From an uncultured Methanosarcinales archaeon (GTDB lineage: Archaea; Nanobdellota; Nanobdellia; Woesearchaeales; JAGLXL01), in the NCBI GenBank assembly GCA_964384425.1, contig CAYLKE010000004.1, positions 6,511 through 70,510 of the forward strand: a stretch of 64,000 bases of DNA. The letters are read 5' to 3'. The translations under genes and the position numbers were made by a program. Of this stretch, positions 5,276 through 51,498 are shown piece by piece. The notes below the pieces were generated by a model. It did no database searches and was not told the origin of the DNA. It was given only the letters and a program-made list of their open reading frames with translations. Position 1 is the stretch's first letter. Every line of letters starts with the position of its first letter.

Positions 5276-5299
5276 TTGGTTAAATAAAGAGGTGTTAAG

Positions 5300-21069: not shown

Positions 21070-21145
21070 TTATTTTTTTTATTTTTAATATACAAAAAAT
21101 TTAAATAGTACATTGTATTACATTGTAACACAAAGGGTTTATACA

Positions 21146-21409
21146 ATGGAAACACTATCTATAAGATTTCAAGAAAATATTATGAAGAAAATTGATTCAG
21201 TAATAAAAAGCAATTTCTTTAATTCTAGAACTGAGTTTGTTAGAGAAGCTGTTAGAGATAAATTATCTGAATTAGAGAAAGAATGGGCTATTAATGAATT
21301 TTTAAAATTACATGGAAGTATTAAAAGAAAAACAAATAAGACTGATAGACAAATAAGAGAACAAGTCAGTAAAGAAATGTTAGCTGAATTAGAAAAAAAG
21401 TTTGGTTAA
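21146..21409 (+). CDS. Ribbon-helix-helix (CopG/RHH) DNA-binding protein, antitoxin-like
   Basis: The N-terminus (METLSIRFQENIMKKID…SRTEFVREAVRDKL) fits a beta-strand plus two helices RHH fold. AAGGG Shine-Dalgarno-like 9 nt upstream of the ATG at 21146; the track ORF starts at a TTG at 21113. Confidence 0.55.
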   Translation: METLSIRFQENIMKKIDSVIKSNFFNSRTEFVREAVRDKLSELEKEWAINEFLKLHGSIKRKTNKTDRQIREQVSKEMLAELEKKFG

Positions 21410-21443
21410 ATTTCTTCTGGTCTCTTTGCTTTAGTTATGTCAT

Positions 21444-21824
21444 TTAGATAATTAAAAAATGTTTATCTCTTGTAATCATTATTGCATTGTTATCTCTAGC
21501 TTGAATTGCATACAAACAATCTCCTAAAGGAAGATTTCTTTTTATTGAAAGATTTTTAGCTTCTTTAAATGTCTTTTCACTAATTTCTATTTTAATTATT
21601 TTGCCAGAAATAAATAATAAATTTAACATATAATTAATGTCTTGTTCAGAATATGTTGTTTTTAATTCTTTTATGGTTGTATTAGAAAATAATATTTTAT
21701 TTTTTGATTTAATTATCTTATTGATTAGTGCAGTTGCATATTGCCCTATTGGATTTCCTACTAAACTAATTCTGTTTTCAAAAAAGTCCATCCAAATACA
21801 TGTATCTAATAAATATTTTCTCAT
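21444..21824 (-). CDS. PIN-domain protein (VapC-like ribonuclease toxin)
   Basis: N-terminal LLDTCIWMDFF… with acidic residues spaced as in PIN domains, and a C-terminal …ITRDKHF. Confidence 0.55.
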   Translation of the reverse strand: MRKYLLDTCIWMDFFENRISLVGNPIGQYATALINKIIKSKNKILFSNTTIKELKTTYSEQDINYMLNLLFISGKIIKIEISEKTFKEAKNLSIKRNLPLGDCLYAIQARDNNAIMITRDKHFLII

Positions 21825-26660: not shown

Positions 26661-27884
26661 ATGAAAAATACAATAAAACTTTCTGAAAAAGAAAAAAAAC
26701 TATTGCCTTCATCATTTGATATGTTGGGAGATATGATTATTGTAGAGATTCCTGAAGAACTTATCAAAAAAGAAAAATTAATTGGAGAATATCTTTTGAA
26801 GAAAAATAAAGTAAAATCTGTGTTTAAGAAATCATCACATTTTTCAGGAGTCTATAGGACGAGAAAATTGCGTTTGTTGGCTGGAGAGAATGTTAAAGAA
26901 TCTTATTATAAAGAGAATGGTGCTATTCTTAGAGTAAATGGAGAAAAGGTTTATTTTTCAACACGATTGGCAAATGAAAGATTGCGAATAGGAAAAGCTG
27001 TTAAGAAAAATGAAAATGTCCTTATTATGTTTGCCGGATGTGCTCCTTATTTAGGGAGTATAGGAAAAAATTCAGATTACAGATTTATGTGTGGGATAGA
27101 AATAAATCCTTATGGTGTGTGGTTAGGACATCATAATATCAAAATAAATAAATTAAAGAATTCTATTATGTTAAATGGAGATGTAAGGGAAGTAATGCCA
27201 AAGTTAGAAAAGTATTTTGAAAAGAAAATCTATAAGCAAGAACATATTGTATTAGATAAGAAAGATACAAATTCACAATTTATAGTTGTTGAAGATCCAA
27301 CTAAAATCAAAAAAAGAATATTAAAGGATTTTTCTGTTAATTTTGTTATTCCTTATTTTGATTCATTAAGTTTTAGAACAATTGTAAAAGTATTAAGAGA
27401 TAGACATAAAGAATTTGGTATGGAATATTCAGATATTAGAGAGAGGATATATGTTTTGACTGATAATGTGAGTGAGGATGTTAAGAAGAGTATGGAATAT
27501 AATAAAATCAAAAATGTAATTCTTGAAAATGAAAAAGATAAAAAACATTTTGATATAAAAGAATATAATATTCATTTATTTGATGGAAAAAGAATAAATT
27601 TATTTCCTTTTCATGAAAAGTATTTTGACAGGATAGCAATGCCTCTTCCAATGACAGGAGAGGAGTTTTTAGATGTAGCTGTTACTCGTCTTAAAAACAA
27701 AGGAATTATTCATCTCTATGCATTTGAACATAAAGATGAATATGTTAAAATCATGAAAGATAGAATTGCCAAGTATTTAGGAAAATCAAAATATCAGTAT
27801 AAGATAAAACAAATAAAAGAATGTGGTGCATTTTCTCCAACTACAGTAAGAGTTGTTGCAGATATAAAAGTAATGAAGAAATAG
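26661..27884 (+). CDS. Trm5/Taw2-family tRNA (m1G37/wyosine) methyltransferase with a ~150-aa insertion between the GDaRE-like and NLP-like motifs
   Basis: Motifs VLIMFAGCAPY, IEINPYGVWLGHHNIKIN, GDVREV and …DRIAMPLP…GIIHLYAF are collinear with Trm5 MTase motifs. The extra segment spans about aa 180-320. Confidence 0.6.
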   Translation: MKNTIKLSEKEKKLLPSSFDMLGDMIIVEIPEELIKKEKLIGEYLLKKNKVKSVFKKSSHFSGVYRTRKLRLLAGENVKESYYKENGAILRVNGEKVYFSTRLANERLRIGKAVKKNENVLIMFAGCAPYLGSIGKNSDYRFMCGIEINPYGVWLGHHNIKINKLKNSIMLNGDVREVMPKLEKYFEKKIYKQEHIVLDKKDTNSQFIVVEDPTKIKKRILKDFSVNFVIPYFDSLSFRTIVKVLRDRHKEFGMEYSDIRERIYVLTDNVSEDVKKSMEYNKIKNVILENEKDKKHFDIKEYNIHLFDGKRINLFPFHEKYFDRIAMPLPMTGEEFLDVAVTRLKNKGIIHLYAFEHKDEYVKIMKDRIAKYLGKSKYQYKIKQIKECGAFSPTTVRVVADIKVMKK

Positions 27885-27990
27885 TTTTTGAATAATTTCT
27901 AATTTCATTAATTTTATTAGAAAGATTTATAAATATATAAATATATACAATAATATATATAAGTTTATATAAAAATTATAAGGAGATTAT

Positions 27991-28257
27991 ATGAAAACTA
28001 AAACACAATTAATACACTATCCTAATCTAAAAACTGTTTTGATGGTTGAAGAAACTTTAATGAAGTCAAGTAGTTTATTAACAAGAGAAGAATTGAAAAA
28101 TAAACTACCTAAAAAAATAATGCACCAAACACTTAATGTTATTTTAAGTTATCTTGAAAAAAGTGGTAAAATTATTGATGGTAGAAAAGGAATTTTGTGG
28201 ATATATAATAAAAGTAAAAAATTAGAAAAAGCTATTTCTTTAGGAGTAGAATTATGA
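27991..28257 (+). CDS. Putative antitoxin (small winged-helix-like protein) of a RelE/ParE-type pair
   Basis: AGGAG Shine-Dalgarno upstream. 88 aa. 4-nt ATGA overlap with the downstream toxin-like gene. Confidence 0.4.
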   Translation: MKTKTQLIHYPNLKTVLMVEETLMKSSSLLTREELKNKLPKKIMHQTLNVILSYLEKSGKIIDGRKGILWIYNKSKKLEKAISLGVEL

Positions 28258-28634
28258 AGTTTAATGATAAAATCATTAAGATAGTAATTACTGGACATGC
28301 TAAAGAGGAATTTGAAAAATTAAATGAAATTGTTGGGCAGGAAATCACAAAAGGAATTTCAGGAAGTAATTATCAAACTTTATTTAATTCAATAAAAGAC
28401 AAAATAAAATTATTAAAGAAAAATCCTCAATTTGGTGTACATGTTAGTAAAAACAAAATTCCTAAATCATATATCCAAAAATATGATGTTAACAATATTT
28501 GGAAAGTAAATTTGGCTGGTGCATGGAGGATGATATATACTTTGAGAGGGGATAAAGTAGAAATAATTTCATTAATTTTAGATATTATTAATCATAAGGA
28601 TTATGAAAAAAAATTTAATTATAAGAAATCTTAA
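28254..28634 (+). CDS. RelE/ParE-superfamily toxin-like protein
   Basis: C-terminal …WKVNLAGAWRMIYTLRGDKVEIISLILDIINHKDY fits the RelE/ParE pattern (R…YR.iY.…v.il.i.H+.dY). Confidence 0.5.
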   Translation: MKFNDKIIKIVITGHAKEEFEKLNEIVGQEITKGISGSNYQTLFNSIKDKIKLLKKNPQFGVHVSKNKIPKSYIQKYDVNNIWKVNLAGAWRMIYTLRGDKVEIISLILDIINHKDYEKKFNYKKS

Positions 28635-28697
28635 TTTAAAATCTTCATAAACAAAATATATAAAAAAATATTTTCTATCTTTGTTTTTATAAAATTT

Positions 28698-29324
28698 TTA
28701 TGTCACTTCTATACTATCTTTATGAATATTCAGTCTTCCTTCTTTCTCGAAATATCTTAATATGAGATCAAATTCAACATCATCAATATCTTCACTACTA
28801 GACATTATCTTTAATTGATTGATAAGAATTATCCTTCCACCTGTCATTGCCATGTCATTTATTATTTTCATAAGTGTTGCAATTTTATCTTCATCAAGAT
28901 CATCAAACATATCATCTCTTTTAATAACTTTTTTTGGTTTTTTTGTAGTTTTTTTAGATTTACTTTTTTTCTGAGAAGTTTTAGTATTTTTCTTTTTATT
29001 GGTTTTTGTTTTCTTAGAACTTTTACGAGTTGTTTTCTTTTTATTTGTTTTTTTATTAGTTGGATTCTTTTCTATTGTCTTCTTTTTTACTGGTTTTTTC
29101 TTTGTTGTTGTTTTCTTTTTTGCTACTTTATTTATTGCTTTCTTTCTTGAGTCTTTCTTTTTGTCTGTTTTTTTATTTTTTGAACCTGTTTTTGTTTTTT
29201 TCTTATTAGAATTTTTATTTTTCACATTCTTTTTTTTAGTAGATGACTTATTGATTTTCTTTTTAGAAGATTTAGCTACAGGTTTTTTCTTTTTTCTTTT
29301 TGAAGTTTTTTTAGTAGGGGACAT
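28698..29324 (-). CDS. Histone-H1-like basic protein: ~135-aa Lys-rich low-complexity N-terminal tail + ~70-aa C-terminal globular (winged-helix-like) domain
   Basis: GAGGTGA Shine-Dalgarno 4-5 nt upstream of the ATG on the minus strand. Tail is about 45% Lys (KKTSKRKKKKPVAKSSKKK…). C-terminus is a compact acidic/hydrophobic domain (…LMKIINDMAMTGGRIILINQLKIM…FDLILRYFEKEGRL…). Confidence 0.6.
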   Translation of the reverse strand: MSPTKKTSKRKKKKPVAKSSKKKINKSSTKKKNVKNKNSNKKKTKTGSKNKKTDKKKDSRKKAINKVAKKKTTTKKKPVKKKTIEKNPTNKKTNKKKTTRKSSKKTKTNKKKNTKTSQKKSKSKKTTKKPKKVIKRDDMFDDLDEDKIATLMKIINDMAMTGGRIILINQLKIMSSSEDIDDVEFDLILRYFEKEGRLNIHKDSIEVT

Positions 29325-29533
29325 AATATCACCTCAGTTTTTATTGGTGTATGATTTATGTGTTTTTATACTTTGCTATAATCTATGCGTATTTTATTAT
29401 AATATTACTATTTTTTTGTTATGGATTTTGTTTATCAAATCTATTGTAATTTAATTTTATGCAATTGATTAATTATCAATAGAGGTATTTGTATTTGTTT
29501 TTACACACACTCTCAGTAAATATAATCATAATT

Positions 29534-29696
29534 GTTGCATGATTACTATTTAACATACACTTAGCTGATAACTGTATTTTGTTATAATTACGAGTTAGTG
29601 CATTTGACATAATTACTATTCAGCACATAGCTGTTCACCTAAGAAAATTTAATTATGAATATATTGCATTTGATATAATTACTATTCAGCACATAG
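29534..29696. promoter_or_regulatory. Three ~32-bp direct repeats (tgcatttga(c/t)ataattactattcagcacatag; third copy degenerate) at ~65-bp spacing in the 560-bp divergent intergenic region upstream of the pilin-like operon
   Basis: Copies at 29599-29630 and 29665-29696 differ at one base. A degenerate copy lies at 29534-29560. Confidence 0.45.
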
Positions 29697-29886
29697 AGTT
29701 TATTGTGCGAAACATTTATATATATTTTATAATAAATAGTAATGTAAGATAAATAGTTAGATTAGTGTATTAAATTGGTGTGTTAAAAGTTGATATGTAT
29801 TAAATTAAATAAATTGCATAATATTAACCAATATTAAAACACATATTAATTAAATATCAAATAATTTATTTTCAAATAATAGGTTT

Positions 29887-31773
29887 ATGATGGAAAAAAG
29901 AGGTCAGGTGACAATATTTATTATAGTAGGTATAATATTATTGGTTTCTATTGGATTAGTTTTTGTTTTCAGAAGTGAGCTTATTTCTGAAACTAAAATA
30001 TCTTATCCTGCAGAAGTTGAACCTGTTGCATTTGCAGTAAGAGATTGTTTACAACAAAAAGCAGATGAAGGTTTAGCATTACTTGGAAGTCAGGCAGGAT
30101 ATATTTATATTCCTCCTCAAATATTAGATGATAGTAATCTTAATGCTGATATTGGTATAAAAATACCTTACTGGAAAAAAGGAGATATAGTAAACATACC
30201 TTCTCTTGATAAAATGAGTTTTGATCTTAACAAATATATTGAAGTTAATCTAAAAGATTGTATGGGTAATTTTTCTGATTTTAGAGATTATGAAGTTATT
30301 GAAACTTCTCCTTTATCTGTAAATACCTCAATAGGTGATGAGGCAGTTGTATTTTCAATGAATTATCCTCTCAAAATAAGATTATTTTCTGATGGATCTG
30401 AGTATGATATTTCTCAATTTGAATATATTTCAAATATTAAATTAAAAAAACTTTGGTTATTATCTAAAGAAATCATGGAAAAAGAAATTGCAACAAAAAA
30501 ATTAGGAGATACAACATTTGATCTTATGGCAATGGATACAAAAATACCTGTTAATGGATATGATTTTAGTTGTGATAAAAAAGAATGGAAAATATCTGAT
30601 GTAGAAGACAGATTAAGAAAATTATTAGCATTTAACTTACCTTTATTAAGAATAAAGAAAACCCCAATAGAACAATTTCCTGATGAATATGAATATATGA
30701 ATACTCACTATATATGGGATGCAACAGATTTTGAATATGATGATGTGTCTGTTAGTTTTGGAATGATGGAAACTGAACCTTTAATGATGCATGTTTCGCC
30801 TTCAAAAGGAGAATACATAAAAAGTGGTGTTATAGAATCTCCTGATAAAAATAAATTAAGTCAATTAGGTATAGATACATCTGCTTTGCTTTCATTGGTT
30901 TGTTTTCAATTATGGAAATTTAATTATGATGTTTCCTATACTGCTTTTGCAAATGTTTTAGATGAATCAACAGGTTTTAAATTTACATTTCTATTTGATG
31001 TAAATGTAGAAGATAATGCTCCAGTTGATACTAGCAATGTACAAGTTGATTATGAAACTTATGTTGAAAAAACAAGTAATGAAGATTTTTGTGATGATAA
31101 AGTTAATGACTTAACAATATATACAAATGAATTTACTAATAATGATAATTATGGTGGAAGTCTTAATAATGTTGAATTGACATTTGATTGCATGCAATAC
31201 TCTTGTGATTTAGGTGACTCAATACCTATTGAAGGAGCATCTGGACTTAAAGTAAAACTACCTAGATGTACTTATGGTTATGTAAGAGCTAATAAAGAAG
31301 GATTTTTAGATGATGAAGAAGTTATTGAAATAGGACAAGAAAAAGTAGATATTAATCTTGTTCCTATACATAAATTAAATAATTTTGTAGTAAAAAAATA
31401 TATTTGGAATGAAAATATAAATGATTGGTTTATAGACGATATAACTGGATCAGATTATGCACTTGTATCTTTAAGAGGTAGTTTAAATAAAGGTGGAGAA
31501 AGTGTTGATTTAGGATCAAGTACAACTTATCCTTTTGAAGAAAGTGTACAAAATTATCTTGAAATATTTTCAGGATCTGATGTAAATTATATTGTTGATG
31601 TTAATTTATTAAGGTCTGGTAAAGTTATAGGAACATATAGTGGAAATTGGAATGTTTCTTGGCAAGATATTTTATTAGGAGAAGAGGTTATTATTCCAGT
31701 TATATTTAATTCAGATAGTCAAGAAATTTTAAATCTTAATAAATCACTAATACCTGAGATAGAGATAAGATGA
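29887..31773 (+). CDS. Large (628 aa) archaeal type IV pilin-like protein with class III signal peptide
   Basis: N-terminus MMEKRGQVTIFIIVGIILLVSIGLVFVF has a KRG|Q prepilin-peptidase-type cleavage motif followed by a ~22-aa hydrophobic helix. 4-nt ATGA overlap with the next gene. Confidence 0.6.
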   Translation: MMEKRGQVTIFIIVGIILLVSIGLVFVFRSELISETKISYPAEVEPVAFAVRDCLQQKADEGLALLGSQAGYIYIPPQILDDSNLNADIGIKIPYWKKGDIVNIPSLDKMSFDLNKYIEVNLKDCMGNFSDFRDYEVIETSPLSVNTSIGDEAVVFSMNYPLKIRLFSDGSEYDISQFEYISNIKLKKLWLLSKEIMEKEIATKKLGDTTFDLMAMDTKIPVNGYDFSCDKKEWKISDVEDRLRKLLAFNLPLLRIKKTPIEQFPDEYEYMNTHYIWDATDFEYDDVSVSFGMMETEPLMMHVSPSKGEYIKSGVIESPDKNKLSQLGIDTSALLSLVCFQLWKFNYDVSYTAFANVLDESTGFKFTFLFDVNVEDNAPVDTSNVQVDYETYVEKTSNEDFCDDKVNDLTIYTNEFTNNDNYGGSLNNVELTFDCMQYSCDLGDSIPIEGASGLKVKLPRCTYGYVRANKEGFLDDEEVIEIGQEKVDINLVPIHKLNNFVVKKYIWNENINDWFIDDITGSDYALVSLRGSLNKGGESVDLGSSTTYPFEESVQNYLEIFSGSDVNYIVDVNLLRSGKVIGTYSGNWNVSWQDILLGEEVIIPVIFNSDSQEILNLNKSLIPEIEIR

Positions 31774-34700
31774 ATATAAAAAAAGGATTTATGATTGTAG
31801 TTTTGTTTATTTTGTCAGTCACATTTGTGTCTGGGCTTGTTACAGAAAATATAGATGTAACTTCTATAACTGATAAAAGTGCAGTTGTTTCAATTCAAGC
31901 AGATGAAACTTCAACAGCAATTGTAAGATATTGGCCAGAAGGAGGGAGTGTAAAGCAAGTAAGATCCTCATCTTCTAATAAAAAACATGAAATTACTTTA
32001 GGTGGTTTAGCAACAAATACTAAGTATTATTATAATCTAACTTTATATGGGGAAGGAGATAATATTTTTAATAACAATAATGTAGGACAACAATTTACAT
32101 TTACAACTGCTTCTGAAGATAATTTTGCACCATTTATTGATATAAATCTTCCTGATTCTTATGATAGAAAGCAAATAAGTATTCTTGGGAAAACAGAACA
32201 GAATTCACACATTACTCTTAGAGTAAATAATGAAGTTATTGGAGAAATGGATGATGATGTTGGAGAGTTTTATTTTCATCATGTTGTTTTAAATGAAAAT
32301 TCACAAAATGATATTTATATTGAAATAGAGGATAATAGGGGCAATAAAGAAACATATTCAAAAACAATATTTGTTGATACCATACCTCCAAATCTTAATG
32401 TTACAACATCTCCTGAAGGAGATTTAATAAATAAAAGTCAAATCACAATAATAGGAAATGTTTCTGAATCTTCACAAATAATTGTTACAATAAATGGTGA
32501 AGAAAAAATAAATACTTCTGGAAGATCATTTGAATCTTCTGTTCAATTGATTGATGGAAGAAATTATATTTCAGTAAAAGCTGTTGATAATGCTGGATGG
32601 AGTACAAAATATGAAAGAACAATAATTGCTGATTTTAAAGATCCTGAAATAACTGAGATAAGACCTAAATTAGATGATATGTTTTTTTATGAAGGAAGTG
32701 GATATAGGTCAGTAAGTGGAAAAACAGAACCTAATTCAAAAGTTTATATTTATGTTGATCCAATTTTAACACCTAGACCTTCTGATGCAACAATTGTAGG
32801 AGATTATTCATATCATACAACTACAGATGAGAATGGAAATTTTAATTTTGATATTGTTGATTTACAACATGGAAAAGACATAGGTAGAAGATTTACTATT
32901 CAAGAGACAGATGATGATCTCAGTATAACTAGAAATAAAAAAATTGATGTTTATGTAACTGTTGAAGACAAGGTAGGACATAAAACAACAAAAAAATATA
33001 CTCTTTCTGTTGGGAATTGCAATGAAGGTTCTTTTGTATTTGCAGTTAATAATCTAGTTGATTATCAATCTCCTAAATATTTTAGTTTAGAAAGAATGAA
33101 GCAAGGAACAGAAGTATTTTCATTTGTACTTGATTTAGAATATAATGGTGCTGCACAAAATAATAAACTCAAACCTTCAGTTGAGGAAATAAAAGATAAT
33201 TATTATCAAATAAGATCTGTAAGTTTAGATTCTGCTTGTAAGGCAGGAGCATATGGAGAAAGTAATAGTTATACTTGGGCATGTGAGGTTCTTCCTTCTC
33301 GTCCAAAAATAGCAATGCCATTGAATGCAGAAAAAACAAGATGGTTTTTTAGTTATGACCTTAAAAAATTAAGTTATGAAGATTTTGATAAGTTATCTCT
33401 TATTGATATGAATATTACTAAAAATGATACTTCTGTTGTTTCAGATAAAGCAGTTGAAAGATTTGAGGAATTAAAAAAGAATGCTTTATCTGTTTTTAAT
33501 AAAGATACAAATGGGGAACTTAAGTTTCCATTTAAAGTAAAAATATCTTATCAAGAAAAAATATTTTCTAAAAAACTTGAGACAAAATCTCAGACAAGTT
33601 GTACAGAAGTTGCAAACTATATGGATGTTGTAAGAACAGAAGATTTCCCAAGTTTAATTCCAGATAATATTATTGATGATGCTTCAAAAGAGATAAATAA
33701 TAGTATAAAAGAAATCGAATATTTCCAGACAAATTATCTTATGAAAGCAATAGAATATGTTAATTATGCTTGTATTGGAAGTACTGTTTCATTATTTGCA
33801 TTTAAGATATATAGGAATTTTCAAGAACTTAGTGCAATAACTGCTTGTATTGCTGGAGAATCTCAAGGAAAAACTTGTTCTCTTGGAAAAAATCCAGTAA
33901 CTGCAATAGATAAACTAAACAAATGTTATTATACTGGGTCTGAAGATCCTATAAAAAAATCAAAACAAGATTATGTGTTGGGGACATGTAAAACTGTACA
34001 AAATCCTACTGGAGAAAGAAAATCACTTACTTCACTTACCTTAACAAATCCTGAATTTTCAATTGTTCAAAGTGCATGGAATTATGAAGAAAGATTATGG
34101 TATATTATGAGATGGGCTTGTGATAGGACATTATGTAGGGTGACACCTGCAAGATGGACAGAAGATAGAACAATAGAAGATATAAGGAGTATAAAATCAA
34201 ATGAACAAAAATGTGCTGTTGATTTAGGAAATGTAAGGTCTTTAAGAAAAATAGATAGTTGTGGTGATAATTACAAAGATTTATTACAAAAAAGTTTTCA
34301 AAAACAAGAAAATTGTTATAAATTAGATAATTGTCTTTACAAATTAGATCCAGGAAATAACAAACTAATACTTATTTCTAAAGAAACAAAAGATAAAAAC
34401 AATGTAACTGATTGTGAAAAAAATCTTAAATACAATAAAGTTGGAGATAGTGTTTATACTTCTTTACAAGAAACATGTAATCAAATTTGTGGAAGAGCTG
34501 AAGGATGGGAAGGAAAATGCATGAAGAAAGATTTTGAAAAAGATTCTGCTTATAAAAAAGATACAGCATATTATTCAGGAGGATGGACAAGAGATTGTGC
34601 AACTAAAGATAATCAAATATGTGTATGTTATAGAAATGATACAAAAATAGTTTCAAAAGAAATAAAAGATGTTCAGAAAAGAGGTGCTGCTTATGCTGGT

Positions 34701-37070
34701 ATTGGAAAAGATGAATATTATTCGGGAAGTAGTGGTGCAGATAAATCTACTTTAGGTAGTGGTTGGAAATTTAATTACAGAGAAAATAGATTATATTTAG
34801 AAAATAATGGAAAATCTGGAATCTATTATCCTAAGGAAAGATTTTATTCTGGTAGAGATGAGCCAGGTGCATTAGGAATGTCTCATTTATTTGATATGTT
34901 TAGAGACGAGAAAAAAATATCCGAATTAAATCCTTATGTTGATTATATATCTCCATTTTTCCCACAACTTTGTTTAACTGGAATGAATGCAAGAATAAAT
35001 TTACTTAAGAATCATCTTAAAATGTTTCAAAAATGTATGGAACAAACAAAAACAACAGGAGATGCAAATTCAGCTACATGTAAGAAAATATTTAGTCAAG
35101 GATTATGTAATTTATTATCTACTTTATTTTTATCACAAGAAAAAGGATGTTTTGGAAAACCTATGTCTGCTTCACAAGGAAAAGATGGAGGAGCTCCTTC
35201 AACATTAGCTCTTTTAAGAACTGCTATAGGAAGTGCAACAAAAGATATGGAAAATAGTCTTAAAGCAGATTATGGAGAAGAAATGGGACTTGCATCCTAT
35301 CTTGAAGGAGGAAGTGTAAGTATTGCAAAAAACATTTGTCTTTTTGCATTAGGAATAGATATAAATCTTGATTTAGAAGCTATGGCAACTGTAACAATGG
35401 GATCTGAAGTTCCTTCAAGAACATCTGTATTAGTATTAACTAAATCAGGACAAGCAGGTGAAAGACAGATGCTTTCATTTAATCCAGCAAATGGAAATGC
35501 AATATATGCTTATGATGCTGCATGGACAATATCTTCTGGATGTGATTTAGATTACAACATATATCTATCTGCTGTTACAGACAAAGAAGTTAGAGAAAAT
35601 AATTTAGATTGTACAATAGTCAATGCAGCAATTGAAGGAAGTAATGGATGCGATAACTTTAATGGAAATACTGAAGTAACTTCTTTATTTTATTCTCAAT
35701 CAGGACTAGAAAATGGTCAATGGGTTGATAAATCAAAATCAGTTAATATAAATTCAAATAGAAGATATGATCATATAAAGATTGTGTTTAGACCAAAAAC
35801 TAATGTAGATATTTCAAAATGCTTTCCAAAAGAATATATTAAGGGAAATCAAGCTGTTATGTATTTCCCAATAAAAGAACAGTTTTCACTTGCAGATCAA
35901 TATGGATGTAGTGTGCAAAGTAATGGTGAATTTAAATGCACTGCTTTTGGAATAAGTGGCCAGAAACAAGCATGGATTCAGGATGTAAAATGTTTTAATC
36001 AAAGAACTTATGAATATGAAGATTGTAGTAGGGTTGAGATGCATTTGGGTGATCCTGTAAAATTAGCAGCAGAGGTTTATACTGATGGAAACAAATATTG
36101 TTTAGGTGGACAACTTACTGGAGATGAACAAAAGATATTGCCTGTTATAGGAGCAGGAAGACCTGAAACATTTGATGTTAAGATAACTCTTGATGATAAT
36201 ATTACCTTGCAAGATTTTATGTCTAATCTTAAGAATAGTGTGTGGGTAAGTAGTAAGGTTAATGTAAGTGCTGTGGGTATTGAATTTGTAAGTGCTGCAA
36301 GTGAAACAAAGAGTGGGGAAGTGAAGATAGGGTATCAGAAAAGTGGTTCACAATATAAGTTTACATTGCCTAAAAATAGTGGAATAAATTCAAAACCTTT
36401 TAATGATGGAGAATATTCTCTAACAGAAATTTCTCGTTATACAATAGATTATAATGGATATAAATTTAAGATAAAAGAATTCATTCCTTCAAAAGATAAA
36501 GGGTATTTTGTTATAAGAACTTCTGCAATAAGAGCAAGTGAGGGTTTTGGAAGAGATGCTTCTTTAAGTTTATATTATCCAAAGGAAGGGACAAGTACTT
36601 GTGTAAAAGGTCAGATGATATCTGTCACACTTCCAGAAGGAATGGCTTATCCAACTTCAAGAACAGTAAATCTTAAATTTAAGCAAACAGATGAAGTTAT
36701 TGAAGGAGCTCAGAAATATTATGACGCTGGAAAGAAAGCATTTAGAAAATGGGCAAGTAATTATACAGATAGTAAAACAGCTGAGTTTGCTATAAGTAAT
36801 TTTAAGATAGCTGCTACAAAAGAACCTCAAGGATTTTATGATCTTAATTCACAATTTGCAATAATTACAACTTATGGTTTATTGAGTGAGAAAGCAATTA
36901 ATGATAAAGAAAAATATAAGAAAAATATGTGTGATAATTATTTTGCAACAAAACAAAAATTTGATGCTGGTTATTATTCAAAATATCCAAAAAGAGATCA
37001 ATATGAATATACTTATGATTATGATAGAATAAAAGCATATTTTGATAAATATGGGGAGATATGCAAATAA
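31770..37070 (+). CDS. Giant secreted protein (1766 aa) with Ig/FN3-like beta repeats and a Cys-rich C-terminal half; possible class III-like N-terminus (KKG|F…)
   Basis: N-terminal MNIKKGFMIVVLFILSVTFVSGLV. Repeated ~90-aa beta-rich modules. About 60 Cys in the C-terminal 1200 aa. Confidence 0.75.
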   Translation: MNIKKGFMIVVLFILSVTFVSGLVTENIDVTSITDKSAVVSIQADETSTAIVRYWPEGGSVKQVRSSSSNKKHEITLGGLATNTKYYYNLTLYGEGDNIFNNNNVGQQFTFTTASEDNFAPFIDINLPDSYDRKQISILGKTEQNSHITLRVNNEVIGEMDDDVGEFYFHHVVLNENSQNDIYIEIEDNRGNKETYSKTIFVDTIPPNLNVTTSPEGDLINKSQITIIGNVSESSQIIVTINGEEKINTSGRSFESSVQLIDGRNYISVKAVDNAGWSTKYERTIIADFKDPEITEIRPKLDDMFFYEGSGYRSVSGKTEPNSKVYIYVDPILTPRPSDATIVGDYSYHTTTDENGNFNFDIVDLQHGKDIGRRFTIQETDDDLSITRNKKIDVYVTVEDKVGHKTTKKYTLSVGNCNEGSFVFAVNNLVDYQSPKYFSLERMKQGTEVFSFVLDLEYNGAAQNNKLKPSVEEIKDNYYQIRSVSLDSACKAGAYGESNSYTWACEVLPSRPKIAMPLNAEKTRWFFSYDLKKLSYEDFDKLSLIDMNITKNDTSVVSDKAVERFEELKKNALSVFNKDTNGELKFPFKVKISYQEKIFSKKLETKSQTSCTEVANYMDVVRTEDFPSLIPDNIIDDASKEINNSIKEIEYFQTNYLMKAIEYVNYACIGSTVSLFAFKIYRNFQELSAITACIAGESQGKTCSLGKNPVTAIDKLNKCYYTGSEDPIKKSKQDYVLGTCKTVQNPTGERKSLTSLTLTNPEFSIVQSAWNYEERLWYIMRWACDRTLCRVTPARWTEDRTIEDIRSIKSNEQKCAVDLGNVRSLRKIDSCGDNYKDLLQKSFQKQENCYKLDNCLYKLDPGNNKLILISKETKDKNNVTDCEKNLKYNKVGDSVYTSLQETCNQICGRAEGWEGKCMKKDFEKDSAYKKDTAYYSGGWTRDCATKDNQICVCYRNDTKIVSKEIKDVQKRGAAYAGIGKDEYYSGSSGADKSTLGSGWKFNYRENRLYLENNGKSGIYYPKERFYSGRDEPGALGMSHLFDMFRDEKKISELNPYVDYISPFFPQLCLTGMNARINLLKNHLKMFQKCMEQTKTTGDANSATCKKIFSQGLCNLLSTLFLSQEKGCFGKPMSASQGKDGGAPSTLALLRTAIGSATKDMENSLKADYGEEMGLASYLEGGSVSIAKNICLFALGIDINLDLEAMATVTMGSEVPSRTSVLVLTKSGQAGERQMLSFNPANGNAIYAYDAAWTISSGCDLDYNIYLSAVTDKEVRENNLDCTIVNAAIEGSNGCDNFNGNTEVTSLFYSQSGLENGQWVDKSKSVNINSNRRYDHIKIVFRPKTNVDISKCFPKEYIKGNQAVMYFPIKEQFSLADQYGCSVQSNGEFKCTAFGISGQKQAWIQDVKCFNQRTYEYEDCSRVEMHLGDPVKLAAEVYTDGNKYCLGGQLTGDEQKILPVIGAGRPETFDVKITLDDNITLQDFMSNLKNSVWVSSKVNVSAVGIEFVSAASETKSGEVKIGYQKSGSQYKFTLPKNSGINSKPFNDGEYSLTEISRYTIDYNGYKFKIKEFIPSKDKGYFVIRTSAIRASEGFGRDASLSLYYPKEGTSTCVKGQMISVTLPEGMAYPTSRTVNLKFKQTDEVIEGAQKYYDAGKKAFRKWASNYTDSKTAEFAISNFKIAATKEPQGFYDLNSQFAIITTYGLLSEKAINDKEKYKKNMCDNYFATKQKFDAGYYSKYPKRDQYEYTYDYDRIKAYFDKYGEICK

Positions 37071-37128
37071 AAGATTGAAGGTGAAAATTGCAAACAATTT
37101 TCAGTCATCAATTAGGAGAGTGATAAAT

Positions 37129-37803
37129 ATGAAATATATAACACCATTCAAGAAAATGTATGAAAAGTGGTATTTAACATTATTATGTTTAGCAATAATA
37201 TTTTTATCTATGTTTTTTATAGGGGTTATTAGTGTGAGATATTCTTTACATCTTGCAGAACTCACATTAACAAATCAAATGTTTGATTCTGGTTTACAAC
37301 AGCAGGTTATGTCAACAATGCAGAATATGTTTTTGTTTATGTTACTTATATTTATTTTTAATGAAGGATTTTTATGGACATTAGGTGAAAGAATAATGCA
37401 TAGAAAACTTTCATTTTATAATTCATGGTTTAGGTGGTTAATAATAACAATAGTTACTGCTTTGTTTGTGTTATTGTTTTCAGTATTTGCTTATATGGGA
37501 TTGAATATGATTATTTATTACTTGCTGTTGTTGTTAGTGGGATATTTTGCAATAATTGCATATTCTTCTATACACCATAGATGGCCAGGGATATGGAAGT
37601 CAATTTTTAAGGTAGGGTTTAAGAAATTTTATATTGCACTTCCATTTTATTTGATTCCTGCATGGTTTTTTTATTATTTTGGTGGTTGGATGATGACAAT
37701 ATCAAATGCATTTGCTAGTGTGTTTTTATTGGTGTTTTTAGGAGTTGTTTATTTATTAATTAGATTATATTGGATATATTTATATGGAGAGATACTTGCA
37801 TAA
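37129..37803 (+). CDS. Polytopic membrane protein (6-7 TM) of unknown function
   Basis: AGGAG Shine-Dalgarno about 10 nt upstream of the ATG at 37129; the track ORF starts at a TTG at 37042 inside the previous gene. Several hydrophobic helices. Confidence 0.6.
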   Translation: MKYITPFKKMYEKWYLTLLCLAIIFLSMFFIGVISVRYSLHLAELTLTNQMFDSGLQQQVMSTMQNMFLFMLLIFIFNEGFLWTLGERIMHRKLSFYNSWFRWLIITIVTALFVLLFSVFAYMGLNMIIYYLLLLLVGYFAIIAYSSIHHRWPGIWKSIFKVGFKKFYIALPFYLIPAWFFYYFGGWMMTISNAFASVFLLVFLGVVYLLIRLYWIYLYGEILA

Positions 37804-37812
37804 TTATTAAAA

Positions 37813-38376
37813 ATGAGTAATATAACTCAAAAATGGGTAAATGTATTTAAAGCTTATTCATCAAATTATAATGGAAAGCTTTCTGCTAGTCAGATTTCTA
37901 AAAATACAAAAATACCTCAACAAACAGTTTCCAGAATAATGAATCAAATGGTTAAAGATAATGTTGTTAGATTTATTAAAGAGGGAAGAAATAAATTATT
38001 CTATCTTGATAAAAATGCAGTTACCACAAAACCTCTTGTTAAAATAATAGAATGCCAAAAATCTGTTGATTTTTTATTGAAGAATAAAAATATTTCTTTG
38101 ATTGTTAAAGATTTACTTAAGAAATTTAAATGTTTTATTATATTCGGAAGTTATGCTTCTGGTAAAAACAAAAAAAGTTCTGATTTGGATATTTTGATAT
38201 TTTCTAAGAAGAAATCAATAAGAGATATTAAATCTAAATATTCTATTGATATAAATGAACATTTTATTACTTTTGCTGAATTTAAGAGAATGAAAAATAA
38301 TACTTTAATTAAGGAAGTTATAATGAATCACGTGTTATTTGGGGATTTTGACAATGTAATTGAGGTGTTTTTATGA
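37813..38376 (+). CDS. Minimal nucleotidyltransferase (MNT) with N-terminal winged-HTH
   Basis: NTase motif IIFGSYASGKNKKSSDLDILIF (hG[GS]x9-13DhD). N-terminal HTH-like segment (LSASQISKNTKIPQQTVSRIMNQMV). Confidence 0.65.
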   Translation: MSNITQKWVNVFKAYSSNYNGKLSASQISKNTKIPQQTVSRIMNQMVKDNVVRFIKEGRNKLFYLDKNAVTTKPLVKIIECQKSVDFLLKNKNISLIVKDLLKKFKCFIIFGSYASGKNKKSSDLDILIFSKKKSIRDIKSKYSIDINEHFITFAEFKRMKNNTLIKEVIMNHVLFGDFDNVIEVFL

Positions 38377-38810
38377 AGATTAAATGGTGTTTTGAACAAA
38401 AAGGTGTTGAACTTATTGATAAAAAAGAACATCTTTCTGAATCTTATATGAAAGAAGCAGACGAAACACTTGAAAATATGTATTTAACTAAAGGAAAATG
38501 GAAAGTAATTACTGCTTATTATTCTTGCTATAATGCAATTTATTCTTTGTTGATGAAAGTAGGTATAAAATGTGAAATACCTGATTGCACTATTGAATTG
38601 ATGGAATTATTTGGATTTAGTTTGGATGATATTGAGTTTATGAAAGATCTGAAAGACGATAGAATTAAAAACCAGTACTACTTAAAGAATATTGAACTAA
38701 AAAATGAATCAAAAGTTAAAGAATTTGTTTTAAAATGTAAGGAAAAACTTTTGATGAATGATTCAGATGTTGAGAATATAAGAAAAAAGATAAAAGAGAT
38801 GATTGAATGA
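38373..38810 (+). CDS. HEPN-domain protein, cognate partner of the upstream MNT
   Basis: 4-nt overlap with the MNT gene. Helical 145-aa protein with an R-x2-N-x2-Y motif (DDRIKNQYYLKN) in place of the canonical Rx4-6H. Confidence 0.5.
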   Translation: MKIKWCFEQKGVELIDKKEHLSESYMKEADETLENMYLTKGKWKVITAYYSCYNAIYSLLMKVGIKCEIPDCTIELMELFGFSLDDIEFMKDLKDDRIKNQYYLKNIELKNESKVKEFVLKCKEKLLMNDSDVENIRKKIKEMIE

Positions 38811-40189
38811 AGAAATTAATTGCTTTGATGTTTGTATTGATGTTTTTGTTAGTTCCATTTACAAGTGCACAAACTAATGATGCAGCATTAGAGGATACTG
38901 CTTTTATCGAATATATCTGGAGTCAGATTGTGTATAAAACAACATTGAAATTTAATTTAGAAGGAAATAATGTTTTTTATAATCCTGAAAAGAAAGCTTG
39001 GACAAATAAACTTACTCAAAAAAGTTTAGAAGATATTGTTGGGTTTACAATTGAGTTAGAAACAATAAGAAAAGAACTAGTTGGTAATTATTCTGATCAA
39101 AAAGATGGCATAAATATTATTTTGAATGAGATAGAAAGAATTGGTCCTGATGCTATTTTTGCTTTAGGAGATTTTTGGTTGATATTTAAGAATAAAAGTA
39201 TGTCATCAGGTGTTCGAGATAATTTTATTAATGTTGCAAGAAAATTAAAAGATGATAAGCTCGAAAATTTCCTTTTAAAAGCAGAGAGATCAGATAACCT
39301 TGAAACATTTATTTCATCTTATAATAAGTCTAAAGAAAAAGAAGAAGATAAAGGTGAAGAAAATAAAGAAGAAACAAAATCAGAAAAAGATGGTTTATGT
39401 ATTGATACAAATAATTGTTATATTACACCAAGAAGTATATCTGAGGCAAATAAAACAAAAATAAGAACTTATCTTAGTAAATTTAAAGCTGAAGATTTAA
39501 GTGATGCTGAAAAAAGACAAATAAGTTTTTGTGCTTATGTAGATACTGTTCCTAATTTTGAATATCTTTATCATGTTCTTGGAAAAGGAGATTATACTGG
39601 GCCTATTTGGCCAGATGGTACAGAATATGTACTGGAAGGAAAAAGTTATTTGGGTGATTTTGATGGATTCGCTAGCGCTTATGTAAATGCTTTAGCATAC
39701 CCATATCATCGTGTTTTTAAAATATATTATGATGAAGGAACTGCTGATTGGTGGATTGAATTTGCAGAAGAAGGATTTTCAGGAGATATAACATCTTATT
39801 CTACTAAAAATAAATTTTTTAAGGAAGTTCTTGCTGACAAAGATGAGAAGTTAGATGTTTATTTTGAACAAGATAAAGATTGGCATATAGCAATAGGTAA
39901 TTATTGTAACTTAAGTTTTCAAAATAATTTGGATTTTTATAGTTCTTCAGTTTATAATTGCCCTCATGGATTTTGGGATTTGGTTCATTGTAAAGAGATA
40001 GAATTTAATAATACAGAAAAGAAATATTATATTTTTGCAAAAGAGGAAGTAGAAAATAATCATGAAGTAATTGGTTCTGAAGAAAAAATTAGGGAAGATT
40101 TTGGTCCTTGGAGAGTTTACAAAAAAGAATTTTTAGATAGCTTTTTGAATAATAAAACAAGGATAAAATTTACTGAAATAAAAAAATAA
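38807..40189 (+). CDS. Secreted protein (460 aa) with Sec signal peptide, K/E-rich linker and Cys-containing C-terminal domain
   Basis: Signal peptide MKKLIALMFVLMFLLVPFTSAQ|TND. 4-nt overlap with the HEPN gene. Confidence 0.65.
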   Translation: MKKLIALMFVLMFLLVPFTSAQTNDAALEDTAFIEYIWSQIVYKTTLKFNLEGNNVFYNPEKKAWTNKLTQKSLEDIVGFTIELETIRKELVGNYSDQKDGINIILNEIERIGPDAIFALGDFWLIFKNKSMSSGVRDNFINVARKLKDDKLENFLLKAERSDNLETFISSYNKSKEKEEDKGEENKEETKSEKDGLCIDTNNCYITPRSISEANKTKIRTYLSKFKAEDLSDAEKRQISFCAYVDTVPNFEYLYHVLGKGDYTGPIWPDGTEYVLEGKSYLGDFDGFASAYVNALAYPYHRVFKIYYDEGTADWWIEFAEEGFSGDITSYSTKNKFFKEVLADKDEKLDVYFEQDKDWHIAIGNYCNLSFQNNLDFYSSSVYNCPHGFWDLVHCKEIEFNNTEKKYYIFAKEEVENNHEVIGSEEKIREDFGPWRVYKKEFLDSFLNNKTRIKFTEIKK

Positions 40190-40246
40190 TAAATGAATAA
40201 TGAATAAAATAAAAACATTTAAATTACTTCTTTATCTCTTTTCTTT

Positions 40247-40822
40247 ATGATTTACATAATAGAACATTTAGATGATGAATTATACAAATGGAGTTTGTTA
40301 GAGTATACTCATATCTCTAAGATTGTTGGAAAAGAGAATGTTCTCTTCACAAATATTAAATACGAGAAAGATGCTAAAATATTATCTAAGATTGGAAAGG
40401 TTGAGGAAAAATCAGTAATAGAACTATCTTATTTAAACAAAAACAATACTTGTATTCTAGAACTAGATGGAAAACAGAAACTTTCACTTAATGAAACATT
40501 CAAATATTATATCTTTGGAGGTATTCTCGGAGATCATCCACCACAAGGGCGTACAAGATATATAACAGAGAAATTAAATTTTCCAAAGAGATGTTTAGGA
40601 AATAAACAAATGTCAACAGACACTGCAGTTATTGTTTCTCATGAGATTTTAGAAAACAAAAAGAAATTTTCTGATTTAAAATTCCAAGATGGATTCGAAT
40701 TACAGATAGATGAAGGATTTTCTAATTATTTTCCATTTAGGTATTTGAAGAAAAATAATAAAGTTGTTTTAACACCTGGATTAAAAGAATATCTGAAAGA
40801 AGAAGATATTTCTAATTGTTAA
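40247..40822 (+). CDS. Hypothetical protein (191 aa)
   Basis: Globular, non-repetitive ORF with conserved-looking motifs (YIFGGILGDHPPQGRT). Confidence 0.45.
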   Translation: MIYIIEHLDDELYKWSLLEYTHISKIVGKENVLFTNIKYEKDAKILSKIGKVEEKSVIELSYLNKNNTCILELDGKQKLSLNETFKYYIFGGILGDHPPQGRTRYITEKLNFPKRCLGNKQMSTDTAVIVSHEILENKKKFSDLKFQDGFELQIDEGFSNYFPFRYLKKNNKVVLTPGLKEYLKEEDISNC

Positions 40823-40893
40823 TTACTATTTAACATTTGTTTATAAAGACTTGTTAAATGGCAAAGAAAGGTTTATAAAGAAAAACAGTTTGT

Positions 40894-41835
40894 TTATAAA
40901 TACCCAAAATAAACTTCAAAGAATTTCTTAAAAGTGTTTTCAAATTTATTTAAAATAAATCTAATCAACTTATTGTTATGTTTATTATCAAAAGCACTTA
41001 AACAATCAAAATATGCTTTTCTCATTGTTTTTCTTATTATCAATGGAGGATATCCTTTTTCCATTAACATAGCATTTAATAAAATTCTTCCAATCCTTCC
41101 ATTTCCATCTTCAAATGGATGAATGTTTTCAAATTTTCCATGAAATATCGAACATAGTTCTAAAATGTGTTTTTTATCTTTATTTTTTTCATACCATCTG
41201 ATTAGTTTATCTATTTCTTGTTCAACTTTTTCAGGAGGTGTTGTGCGGAGGTTAGTCATAACAATAAAATTAGGAAATTTTTTAAAACCAGTTGAGACAC
41301 CTGTATCTTTAACAATTTCTGAATGTAATTTAATTATTGATTTTTTATTGATTTTAATTTTTTTATTAAACAATAATTCAATAACATTTCTCATATTTCT
41401 TGTTTCATACACTTCCCTTAGGTCTTTATCTTTTGGAATAAGGTTATCTGTCATAAACATAGTTACATCTTTTAATGTTAATGAGTTTCCTTCAATTGCA
41501 TTAGTTTCATAAGTAAAGTTTGCTGTAAATCTGTCAAGAATGTCTTTTTTTTGGTTTTTAGTTAATTTATTCATTAAATGTTTATACTTAACTTTAATTG
41601 TTTCTATTTTTTTAATATTTATTAAAGAATTTTTTTCTTTAGTTTTTTCTATAAATTTGATATTTTCTTCTATTTCTTTATTTAACAAATATTCTTTTAC
41701 TTCTTTTTTATTTACATCAGATTTATTTTTAATCATTTTTGATACTTTCTTTATTTTTTGATTAGGTAATCTAAATGAATGTTCTGCATAAAGGTACTTA
41801 TGGGACTTAATTGTTTTAGTTTGGACACTAACCAT
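40894..41835 (-). CDS. Fic/Doc-family protein (AMPylation-type Fic domain)
   Basis: Canonical Fic motif HPFEDGNGRIGR within a helical domain. Confidence 0.8.
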   Translation of the reverse strand: MVSVQTKTIKSHKYLYAEHSFRLPNQKIKKVSKMIKNKSDVNKKEVKEYLLNKEIEENIKFIEKTKEKNSLINIKKIETIKVKYKHLMNKLTKNQKKDILDRFTANFTYETNAIEGNSLTLKDVTMFMTDNLIPKDKDLREVYETRNMRNVIELLFNKKIKINKKSIIKLHSEIVKDTGVSTGFKKFPNFIVMTNLRTTPPEKVEQEIDKLIRWYEKNKDKKHILELCSIFHGKFENIHPFEDGNGRIGRILLNAMLMEKGYPPLIIRKTMRKAYFDCLSAFDNKHNNKLIRFILNKFENTFKKFFEVYFGYL

Positions 41836-41882
41836 GTATTTTGTTATCCCTACATACTTTTAAATATTTCTATTTTGTAGGG

Positions 41883-42227
41883 TTAACTAATTAAATTTAC
41901 TTTATTCCCTACCATTACATATTCACCTTCTTCTTTTTCTACACTTCCTTCAACTTGTATTATGTCTCCTTTTTTTAATGAAATATTTTTATCATAGAAT
42001 AATAAAACACTTACTTCTTTTGGAACCATTTGTTGAACTGTTAAGAAGGTTACTTTATTTCCATTACCAGTATTTGTAATTTCTCCTCTTAGAACAAAGT
42101 CTCCTTCTTGTGTAAGATTTTGAATAGTTGTTATGTTTGGATTAATTGTAAGAGATATTATAAAAAGCAATACAACACCTACAAATGCTCCAATATAAGA
42201 TATTTTCTTTAATGTTGATTCTTCCAT
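41883..42227 (-). CDS. Small exported/membrane-anchored protein with beta-rich (OB-like) domain
   Basis: An N-terminal transmembrane/signal segment (IGAFVGVVLLFIISLTI), then ~80 aa of beta-like sequence. Confidence 0.45.
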   Translation of the reverse strand: MEESTLKKISYIGAFVGVVLLFIISLTINPNITTIQNLTQEGDFVLRGEITNTGNGNKVTFLTVQQMVPKEVSVLLFYDKNISLKKGDIIQVEGSVEKEEGEYVMVGNKVNLIS

Positions 42228-42347
42228 AAGATTTTTTTGGATTTACTTTTTATAAGTTACTTGTTTTTATTTTCGGAATATTTTTGTTAATATACTATTG
42301 CTTAAAGGTTAACAATATTAATAAAGAGACTATAATTTATTTTATTA

Positions 42348-43318
42348 TGAAAAGAGTTCAAAGTCCAAGTTCAATAAACACATACAAGCAATGCCCTAGA
42401 AAATATTATTATCAATATATAATCAAATTACCTACTTCTGGAAATATTCACACAATTAGAGGAAATATTGCACATACTGTGTTAGAAGATTTTTATGATG
42501 TAGATGTAAGTTCAGTTGATTTTTCTAATTTTGAAGGATTTTTCAAGAAAAAGATGCAGAATATGCTTTTTGAAGAATGGGGAAAACATAAAGAAGAGAT
42601 TGAGGAGATGGTGGGGTCAAAGGATAAAGCTATATTTTATTTTGAAGAAACCCTTATGATGTTATTTAATTGGTTACAGCATTTTATTAGAGAAGTAAAG
42701 GAGAAGAATGATGGAGAAAAGTCTTTTCAAGAATTATTTAAACAACTTACTCCAGAAAGAGAAGGATCATATAAATCTATGAAATACTCTGTCAGAGGAT
42801 ATATTGATAGAGTAGATCTTGTGGATGGGAAAATAATGGTTGTTGATTATAAGACAAGTTCTCGTTATAAATTATCTAATGATTATAAATTACAATTAGC
42901 TATATATTCTTTATTATATTATGAAAAACATGGAAAGATTCCAGATGAAGTTGGATTGTTTTTTTTAAGATTTCAGCCTTTGATGATACCTGCTAATCAA
43001 GAACTTATTGATTATGCAATTCAAGAAGTTGAATTTGTTCACGAACAGACACAATACAAAGAAATAGAATATTATCCTCGTAAAACTTCTCCATTATGTA
43101 AATATTCTACTGGACAATGTCCTTTTTATGATGTATGTAATGGAAATATGTGTCCTGAGAAGTATAAAGAGATTATGGGTGTTAAGGACGATAAAAATAA
43201 TCCTAGGAATGAGAAAAATGATGATTCTAGTAAAAAGGAACAAGTTAAGAAATGTGAATCTCTCATAGAGAAAAGACCTCAGTCACATTTCACAAATGGT
43301 CAGACGACATTTAGATAA
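42348..43318 (+). CDS. Cas4-like / RecB-family PD-(D/E)xK nuclease with predicted 4-Cys Fe-S cluster (stand-alone, no cas genes)
   Basis: N-terminal QCPRKYYYQY. Motif II-III GYIDRVDL…VVDYKTS. C-terminal Cys triad CKYSTGQCPFYDVC(…C). Probable start is the ATG at 42348; the track ORF begins at an upstream TTG. Confidence 0.6.
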
Positions 43319-45203: not shown

Positions 45204-45233
45204 AATAAAAGAAGAATAAAAAAGAGGTAAAAA

Positions 45234-51493: not shown

Positions 51494-51498
51494 TCAAT

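Follow-up and report, generated by a model that had tools for sequence, protein, structure and literature searches.

The stretch analysed here, called the window throughout, comprises 64,000 nt of contig CAYLKE010000004.1, has a guanine-plus-cytosine content of ~27% and is archaeal by its gene content (FEN1, TYW2, ThrRS, an SFM1-like methyltransferase and an intein); the contig that comes nearest to it in synteny is from Woesearchaeota. At the locus in question, a gene for a 628-aa protein with a prepilin-like N-terminus is directly followed by a gene for a secreted giant of 1766 aa. Comparison with related loci indicates that this pair is one copy of a widespread two-gene cassette specific to one branch of the DPANN (tiny symbiotic archaea), that of the Woese-, Pace- and Nanoarchaeota. 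Cassette regions of relatives carry L numbers or the label P0012, protein clusters carry C numbers, and C0 designates the superfamily of the 628-aa protein. The features of the locus are as follows:

29538..29696, + strand: direct repeats upstream of the C0 gene (two 35-nt copies and two weaker copies)
29887..31773, + strand: C0 gene, 628 aa (open reading frame (ORF) call)
31770..37070, + strand: giant partner, 1766 aa (ORF call; its ATGA start overlaps the C0 stop)
34887..35804, + strand: conserved core of the giant (residues 1040–1345) with five invariant cysteines (iterated profile)
37126..37803, + strand: polytopic membrane protein, 225 aa from ATG 37126 (or 253 aa from TTG 37042)
37813..38376, + strand: winged helix-turn-helix (wHTH) and MNT protein, 187 aa (Pfam, PADLOC)
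38373..38810, + strand: HEPN-domain protein of the AF0298/UPF0332 type, 145 aa (family profile)
38807..40189, + strand: secreted protein, 460 aa (Sec signal; its ATGA start overlaps the HEPN stop)

When checked on the DNA, all six ORFs had the coordinates and lengths given in an earlier note on this locus, which had described the genes as chained by overlaps of 4–29 nt. The chain holds in part: ATGA overlaps are present at 31770, 38373 and 38807, but the membrane gene and the MNT gene are separated by a 9-nt gap instead. Similarly, the 29-nt overlap between the giant and the membrane gene exists only if the latter starts at TTG 37042, whereas ATG 37126 leaves a 55-nt spacer. The ATG is the more likely start, judging by the sequence around it, because a AGGAGAGTGAT ribosome-binding site lies just 5' of it and the resulting N-terminus resembles that of the homolog in L005.

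The 628-aa protein begins MMEKRG/QVTIFIIVG..., where the slash marks the predicted class III cleavage site between G6 and Q7 (nt 29902–29907). The sequence features of a class III signal are present, namely a basic residue at −2 (K-R-G6 in the window copy), Gly at −1 near the N-terminus, Gln at +1 and a hydrophobic H-domain (residues 7 to ~30, Kyte-Doolittle 2.6, modelled as part of a helix spanning residues 5–34). A homolog search returned 15 homologs of 20–33% overall identity, in which residues G6 to I12 are invariant; the leaders preceding the invariant Gly vary in length from 3 to >30 residues across C0 homologs. The earlier note had ascribed a class III signal to this protein and had held that homologs lacking Gly at −1 would speak against it. 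This was looked at, and both the −1 Gly and the +1 Gln are kept; because the −1 Gly is conserved across homologs, the class III reading is not refuted.

A scan for DNA encoding GQVTIFI[IV], with one genome per species, returned at least 120 stretches. Some 100 of these are N-terminal in ORFs of metagenome-assembled genomes (MAGs; species representatives) that bear the label Woesearchaeota, Pacearchaeota, Nanoarchaeota or Nanoarchaeia. Other labels (Aenigmarchaeota, Diapherotrites, 'Methanosarcinales', 'bacterium') occur for a few, and nearly all N-terminal occurrences fall in DPANN MAGs; the clearly bacterial matches are short, internal and attributable to chance. The signature K-[KR]-G-Q-V-T-I-F-I-I is almost invariant, with K or R at −2 in 95/106 members of the C0 family. 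As this set was selected by its motif, 11 paralogs found by adjacency in the loci served as an independent check, and these follow the pattern [KR]-G-Q-[VI]-[TA]-x-F-[IVLM]-[IV] (Gly in 10/11, Gln in 11/11, Phe in 11/11). The conservation of the N-terminal motif is far in excess of chance, and the presence of a class III-type signal on the 628-aa protein, with predicted cleavage, is well supported. The site fits the KGQV/KGQI type known from Epd pilins of Methanococcus maripaludis, which are processed by EppA, a peptidase that needs Gln at +1 (PMC4371748).

ORFs of ~115 loci were clustered and pairing was counted for 90 C0 genes, a large downstream gene being defined as one of at least 450 aa, or cut by the locus end, on the same strand and with a hydrophobic signal at its start. 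In this strict count, the C0 gene is directly followed by such a gene in 76/90 loci, and the other 14 cases mostly involve a giant that is split, truncated or mis-started; upstream neighbours of C0 are large in only 12/90. The spacing between C0 and giant has a median of −4 nt, and full-length giant partners carry a median of 40 cysteines. The tight coupling of the two genes that the earlier note had read from the ATGA overlap in the window is supported. Pairing also follows size class: C0 proteins of ~250 aa occur with C1 giants, those of ~610–665 aa with C3 or C7, and those of ~800 aa with C9.

The cassettes are not confined to islands. The closest relatives of the window cassette (L001 and L007) sit between CysRS and enolase/RelA, pairs of ~250-aa C0 and C1 adjoin PCNA and primase, and pairs of ~610-aa C0 and C3 adjoin S3Ae, L44e and FtsY (the neighbours of the C1 and C3 pairs being assigned by reading representative sequences, with no Pfam scan). 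A ~241-aa gene (C2) beside the small C0 genes, considered as a candidate prepilin peptidase, was rejected on the same kind of reading, in which it appears as PCNA, with primase, S3Ae, L44e and FtsY for neighbours. Several MAGs hold more than one cassette; there are two in tandem in L005, and multiple copies in CAWJRC010000004.1, CAZWBB01 and JBAXEZ01.

Small pilin-like genes with [KR]GQ or [KR]GF sites (C14, C18, C59, C303) flank some cassettes, and four such genes precede the C0 gene and giant in L094. Clusters encoding proteins of ~140–300 aa with these N-termini were seen beside cassettes at L094 5670–7999 (− strand) and L100 6624–8000, and in L048, L069 and L103. From their sequences, these small proteins are candidates for the true pilins of these archaea.

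All motif proteins form a single homology network, even after removal of the N-terminal helix. The C0 superfamily spans 250–860 aa in three size classes (~250, ~610–665 and ~800 aa) that have the first ~200 aa in common: the ~250-aa proteins align to residues 1 to ~200 of the 628-aa protein, and the two larger classes extend further. In an alignment of 51 N-domains, C54 and C125 are invariant, and G71 and P105 nearly so; the closer homologs of the 628-aa protein also keep G67, Q69, Y72 and W96 with few or no exceptions. No match was found for the 628-aa protein in Pfam, NCBIfam or PADLOC, no common Pfam family for the 51 N-domains and no PDB match for the ~200-aa alpha/beta N-domain. A word-index search with the N-terminal 205 aa gave one match, and our literature search found no description of the GQVTIFII motif or of the C0–giant cassette.

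The AlphaFold model of the 628-aa protein (pLDDT, the predicted local distance difference test score, of 77 over the whole protein and 81 over residues 1–225) consists of the membrane helix 5–34, a break, a second helix at 42–68, a loop region with a helix at 107–126, a four-stranded sheet at 135–182, further alpha/beta structure, and beta-sandwich domains from ~residue 400 to the C-terminus. Full-length comparison with Foldseek against PDB and BFVD returned generic beta-sandwich matches only. The arrangement that defines type IV pilins, a long N-terminal helix whose C-terminal half packs on an antiparallel beta-sheet, was not recognised by fold comparison of the C0 model. No pilin fold match was obtained with Foldseek against PDB; as far as the model goes, a pilin globular fold for C0 is not supported.

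We favour a reading, which we hold to be somewhat more probable than not, in which C0, once processed at its class III site, serves as a pilin-like anchor or adaptor and presents the giant, which has no anchor, for attachment, with the third-gene protein as an accessory. Several observations weigh against it. The membrane helix of the model is broken from the next helix; the search of the N-domain model against PDB with Foldseek found no pilin, nor any structure at E < 0.001; and profile matches to pilin N-terminal helices in PDB were sub-threshold (E = 0.19 and 1.5). Position +5 of C0 is Phe instead of the Glu that is usual in EppA substrates and in bacterial pilins. No prepilin peptidase, type IV filament ATPase or platform gene was detected among the window ORFs scanned, and none of the three recurs as a neighbour in the ~115 loci. 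The homology, the motif conservation, the gene pairing with its spacing and the types of secretion signal are shown by the sequences, whereas cleavage of C0, its physical interaction with the giant and the adhesive role of the latter are inferred.

Much of this would also suit an uncleaved signal-anchor, with C0 as a type II membrane protein whose GQVTIFII helix is conserved for packing with a partner, e.g. the third-gene product, and has no link to type IV filaments. Such an explanation would account for the lack of a detected pilin fold in the C0 N-domain, for the absence of filament machinery from the scanned ORFs and related loci and for Phe at +5, and a polytopic membrane protein does follow the giant in most loci in which that position is visible. 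It fits less well with the N-terminus itself: a charged [KR]-G before the helix together with an invariant polar Gln is the recognition pattern of prepilin peptidases, the motif is in register with bacterial pilins cleaved between G and F, and the site is fixed while the leaders vary. Pilin genes are also frequently unlinked from the assembly machinery (PMC4371748), and Epd-type 'system 1' filament machineries have been reported in DPANN (bioRxiv 10.64898/2026.04.22.720090). On balance we judge the uncleaved anchor unlikely, albeit far from negligible.

The 1766-aa giant carries a Sec-type signal, as expected from its earlier description as a secreted protein, and has 40 cysteines, all beyond residue 400; by hydrophobicity, it has no membrane anchor besides the signal. 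A class III signal was considered for the giant as well and rejected, as its KKGF is not conserved and homologs carry Sec signals ending in A-L-[DE]. Pfam places FN3/Pur_ac_phosph_N-like and Glucodextran_B/Big-like domains at ~residues 26–113 and 207–289, and across the giants it returned FN3/Ig-like domains only and no PilY1/PilC domain. The window giant, a member of C7, is 25% identical to that of L001 over ~1600 aa. A word-index search with the giant returned itself and two matches that cover no more than a short part of the query at its N-terminus (13% and 5%).

Iterated profiles revealed a ~275-aa core with five invariant cysteines that links giant clusters C7, C3, C60 and C95, and that C9 giants match only over the first ~90–130 positions; the core-bearing giants are those following C0 proteins of 600–800 aa. 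The only PDB profile match of the core is to saposin C (E = 0.23), which is non-significant and serves as a lead only. A moderately to strongly hydrophobic mid-protein segment also recurs in C7-type giants (window 33730–33810, residues ~655–680; residues 689–707 in the L001 giant and 645–678 in the L120 giant), for which a buried helix, a membrane-active segment or an anchor are all conceivable.

The third gene encodes a polytopic protein with ~5 hydrophobic helices, in agreement with its earlier description as a membrane protein. A polytopic membrane protein of 225–275 aa follows the complete giant in the window, in L005 (twice), in L086 and probably in L120, and a single-helix protein of 181–185 aa occupies this place in L001 and L007. 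Sequence similarity among the third-gene membrane proteins of different loci is not significant; what is conserved is position and topology. The 460-aa protein carries a Sec signal as well as a linker that is acidic and rich in Lys, and no homolog was found beyond the signal peptide in related loci or the window; its gene's membership of the cassette is uncertain. Neither this protein nor the third-gene product (in its 253-aa form) had a match in Pfam, NCBIfam or PADLOC.

In the anchor or adaptor reading favoured above, C0 would insert in the membrane through its N-terminal helix bearing the EppA-type site K-R-G/Q-V-T-I-F-I-I and would be processed by a prepilin peptidase. The giant, translationally coupled to C0 through the ATGA overlap, would be exported via Sec and held at the cell surface by C0, acting as a membrane-embedded pilin-like stalk; alternatively, C0 may belong to a type-IV-filament-like structure, as a large subunit of the minor or tip kind. 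In either case the giant would mediate attachment to a host cell or substrate, and the small polytopic protein of the third gene would play an accessory role. Downstream of gene 3, the wHTH-MNT and HEPN genes would have been inserted, co-oriented with the gene of the 460-aa secreted protein. The novel regulated adhesive fibre suggested in the earlier note finds no support here, there being neither a detected pilin fold nor pilus assembly genes in the neighbourhood.

A partly overlapping explanation would make the cassette a device for attack or feeding and not a passive adhesin, with the giant perturbing or opening the envelope or membrane of the host. Downstream of the cassette, L007 encodes a secreted SLT lytic transglycosylase (602 aa; 8540–10348) and L001 a GDSL-lipase-like protein (645 aa; 19693–21630), which fit the murein-hydrolase-like large proteins reported for Woese- and Pacearchaeota. 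In passages of Castelle et al. 2021 (PMC8204110), the large SLT proteins that occur in these lineages are tied to the cell walls of bacteria, and the weak saposin C match of the cysteine core points the same way. That match is non-significant, however, none of the giants examined revealed a catalytic domain, and the window has no SLT or lipase neighbour. We consider an attack or feeding device improbable. A bolder extension of the attachment reading is that C0–giant cassettes constitute a host-contact apparatus, near-universal in Woese-, Pace- and Nanoarchaeota and with multiple paralogs per genome, in which a pilin-type subunit would present a disulfide-rich giant whose five-cysteine core engages the host membrane or envelope; this we put forward as a rather unlikely, speculative possibility.

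The MNT/HEPN pair was identified by different routes for its two members, and its earlier identification is confirmed. The 187-aa protein combines a wHTH domain with Pfam NTP_transf_2 (PF01909, E = 2.3e-8) and carries the MNT motif GS-x10-DLD (sequence GSYASGKNKKSSDLD); it matches PADLOC PDC-M05A over its full length (E = 2.5e-12) and MntA weakly. The 145-aa protein by itself had no HEPN match in the domain libraries and no PADLOC model matches it, so that PDC-M05 is matched by its A component only. An exhaustive search returned 292 relatives, of which 63 were aligned; 51/63 match Pfam HEPN PF05168, and the family profile matches PDB 2hsb (AF0298) with E = 1.3e-11. In the window copy the HEPN motif reads R97-IKNQ-Y102, and the whole subfamily has R-x4-Y, which departs from the Rx4-6H pattern. 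Residue 70 of the window copy is Pro where at least 90% of the 63 aligned members have His (CEIHxCT to CEIPDCT), and this copy may be functionally degenerate.

Whether the pair belongs to the operon functionally, the wHTH-MNT protein regulating the surface genes or the two acting as an addiction module that keeps the locus, has to be weighed against the composition of related cassettes. Its genes lie on the same strand as the cassette, begin 9 nt after the membrane gene and are joined by 4-nt ATGA overlaps, both to each other and to the 460-aa gene, and the MNT protein has a DNA-binding wHTH domain. MNT genes also directly follow the C0–giant pairs of L003, L008 and L098 and lie between C0 and giant at P0012; this recurrence makes a loose functional link possible and speaks to that extent against treating the pair as foreign to the cassette. 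On the other hand, the closest cassettes, L001, L005 and L007, have no such pair, MNTs occur in only ~7/115 loci, where they belong to other clusters and occupy other positions than that of the window, and the window HEPN protein lacks the near-invariant His. In addition, the window holds a second pair of wHTH-MNT and HEPN-like genes in an unrelated context (50972–51921), and it is this one, not the embedded pair, to which the MNT pair of L003 is orthologous.

Because the embedded pair is missing from the closest homologous cassettes, we conclude that it is most probably a local insertion, a mobile toxin-antitoxin (TA) or defence-type module that we infer to be independent of the cassette; such modules may tend loosely to land at cassette ends. 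A functional role of the pair within the operon is, in our estimation, distinctly improbable. The two corresponding proposals of the earlier note fare accordingly: the pair does not appear as an integral part of the operon, and an addiction module stabilising an accessory locus sits poorly with relatives' cassettes that adjoin CysRS, enolase and RelA, or with sister cassettes next to PCNA/primase or ribosomal proteins.

The second pair consists of a wHTH-MNT protein (173 aa) and a weakly HEPN-like partner (140 aa, R-x4-Y). Its ortholog in L003 follows an 805-aa/1094-aa cassette, and in the window it is followed by an AAA_14/DUF4143 ATPase (PADLOC PDC-S01) at 52039–53253. Two further elements are common to the window and L003. 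A gene pair encoding 88 and 126 aa (27991–28634), with weak AbiEi/wHTH and ParE-like matches, recurs at L003 9244–9905 (55% and 46% identity), also upstream of the C0 gene, and is probably, by similarity and gene order, another TA-like pair in conserved synteny. A Fic-domain protein at 40894–41835 (− strand; PADLOC PDC-S04/SoFic-like) is 40% identical to the product of a Fic gene near the L003 cassette, adding to the synteny.

The 562-nt intergenic region 5' of the C0 gene contains the two 35-nt copies (29596–29630 and 29662–29696; 94% identical and 66 nt apart), a repeat with two exact matches in the window against 0 expected from shuffles and found nowhere else in the window. The repeats at 29596–29696 may be operator or promoter elements of the cassette; Rfam had no match across 27500–42500. 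Elsewhere, surface proteins abound in the window. Further secreted proteins of very large size (1201, 2927, 478 and 1417 aa), for which Pfam returned almost nothing, are encoded within 852–4457, 5967–14750 and 43767–49487, and the N-terminal sequence of the first of these, of 1201 aa, recurs in small single-helix proteins at 4670–5932. The 944-aa ORF at 61163–63997 (− strand) contains an intein with a LAGLIDADG homing endonuclease, its listed start lying at most 4 nt from the window end.

To our knowledge, most DPANN of these lineages are uncultured and presumed to be attached to other cells, and we know of no contact molecules described for them. The present comparison turns an anonymous locus of 'hypothetical proteins' into a searchable family, found in more than 100 species-level genomes and defined by the K-[KR]-G-Q-V-T-I-F-I-I signature, the giant partner, the cysteine core and a recurrent membrane component; annotation pipelines currently have no model for C0 or the giant. 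The object of interest is the DPANN-wide C0–giant cassette rather than the TA pair. If the pair is indeed an insertion, MNT/HEPN modules can land within packed operons and yet stay separate, which calls for caution in guilt-by-association arguments.

Adjacent, overlapping genes for wHTH-NTP_transf_2 and HEPN proteins are likewise known from AF0298/UPF0332 HEPN (2hsb), from type VII MntA/HepT and from PDC-M05. The window HEPN protein is not HepT (PF01934); it has R-x4-Y instead of Rx4-6H, and Pro at the position of the His that is near-invariant in its own family. As to the cassette, passages of Castelle et al. 2021 (PMC8204110) describe many families specific to DPANN as lacking annotation and as extracellular or bound to the membrane. 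The large extracellular proteins described there come from the same lineages, and an SLT protein adjoins the cassette in L007; the passages of that paper found by keyword do not mention the GQVTIFII motif, the C0–giant pairing or the cysteine core.

Epd pilins of M. maripaludis differ from C0 proteins in being small and in often having Glu at +5 (C0: 250–860 aa, invariant Phe), and C0 has in addition a distinct N-domain without a pilin fold match and a giant secreted partner. The two are alike in their short basic leader, Gly at −1, obligatory Gln at +1, Val/Ile at +2 and hydrophobic helix (PMC4371748), and in both, conservation is highest at the N-terminus. Large proteins in which a pilin-type N-terminus displays further domains are also found in the modular type IV pilin PilB of Streptococcus sanguinis (PMC8179133) and in the Sulfolobus bindosome binding proteins with class III signals; the grafted domains of C0 are unrelated to both, being beta-sandwiches only, with no solute-binding or vWA-type domains. 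Finally, the giants have neither sequence nor domain homology to the components of the bacterial minor-pilin/PilY1 and type II secretion system GspK tip complexes, and no ATPase or platform gene lies nearby, so that the comparison is one of analogy only; in that sense, the giant resembles a PilY1-type adhesin in having no anchor of its own, and L094 similarly sets small pilin-like genes, a larger one and a Sec-secreted giant together.

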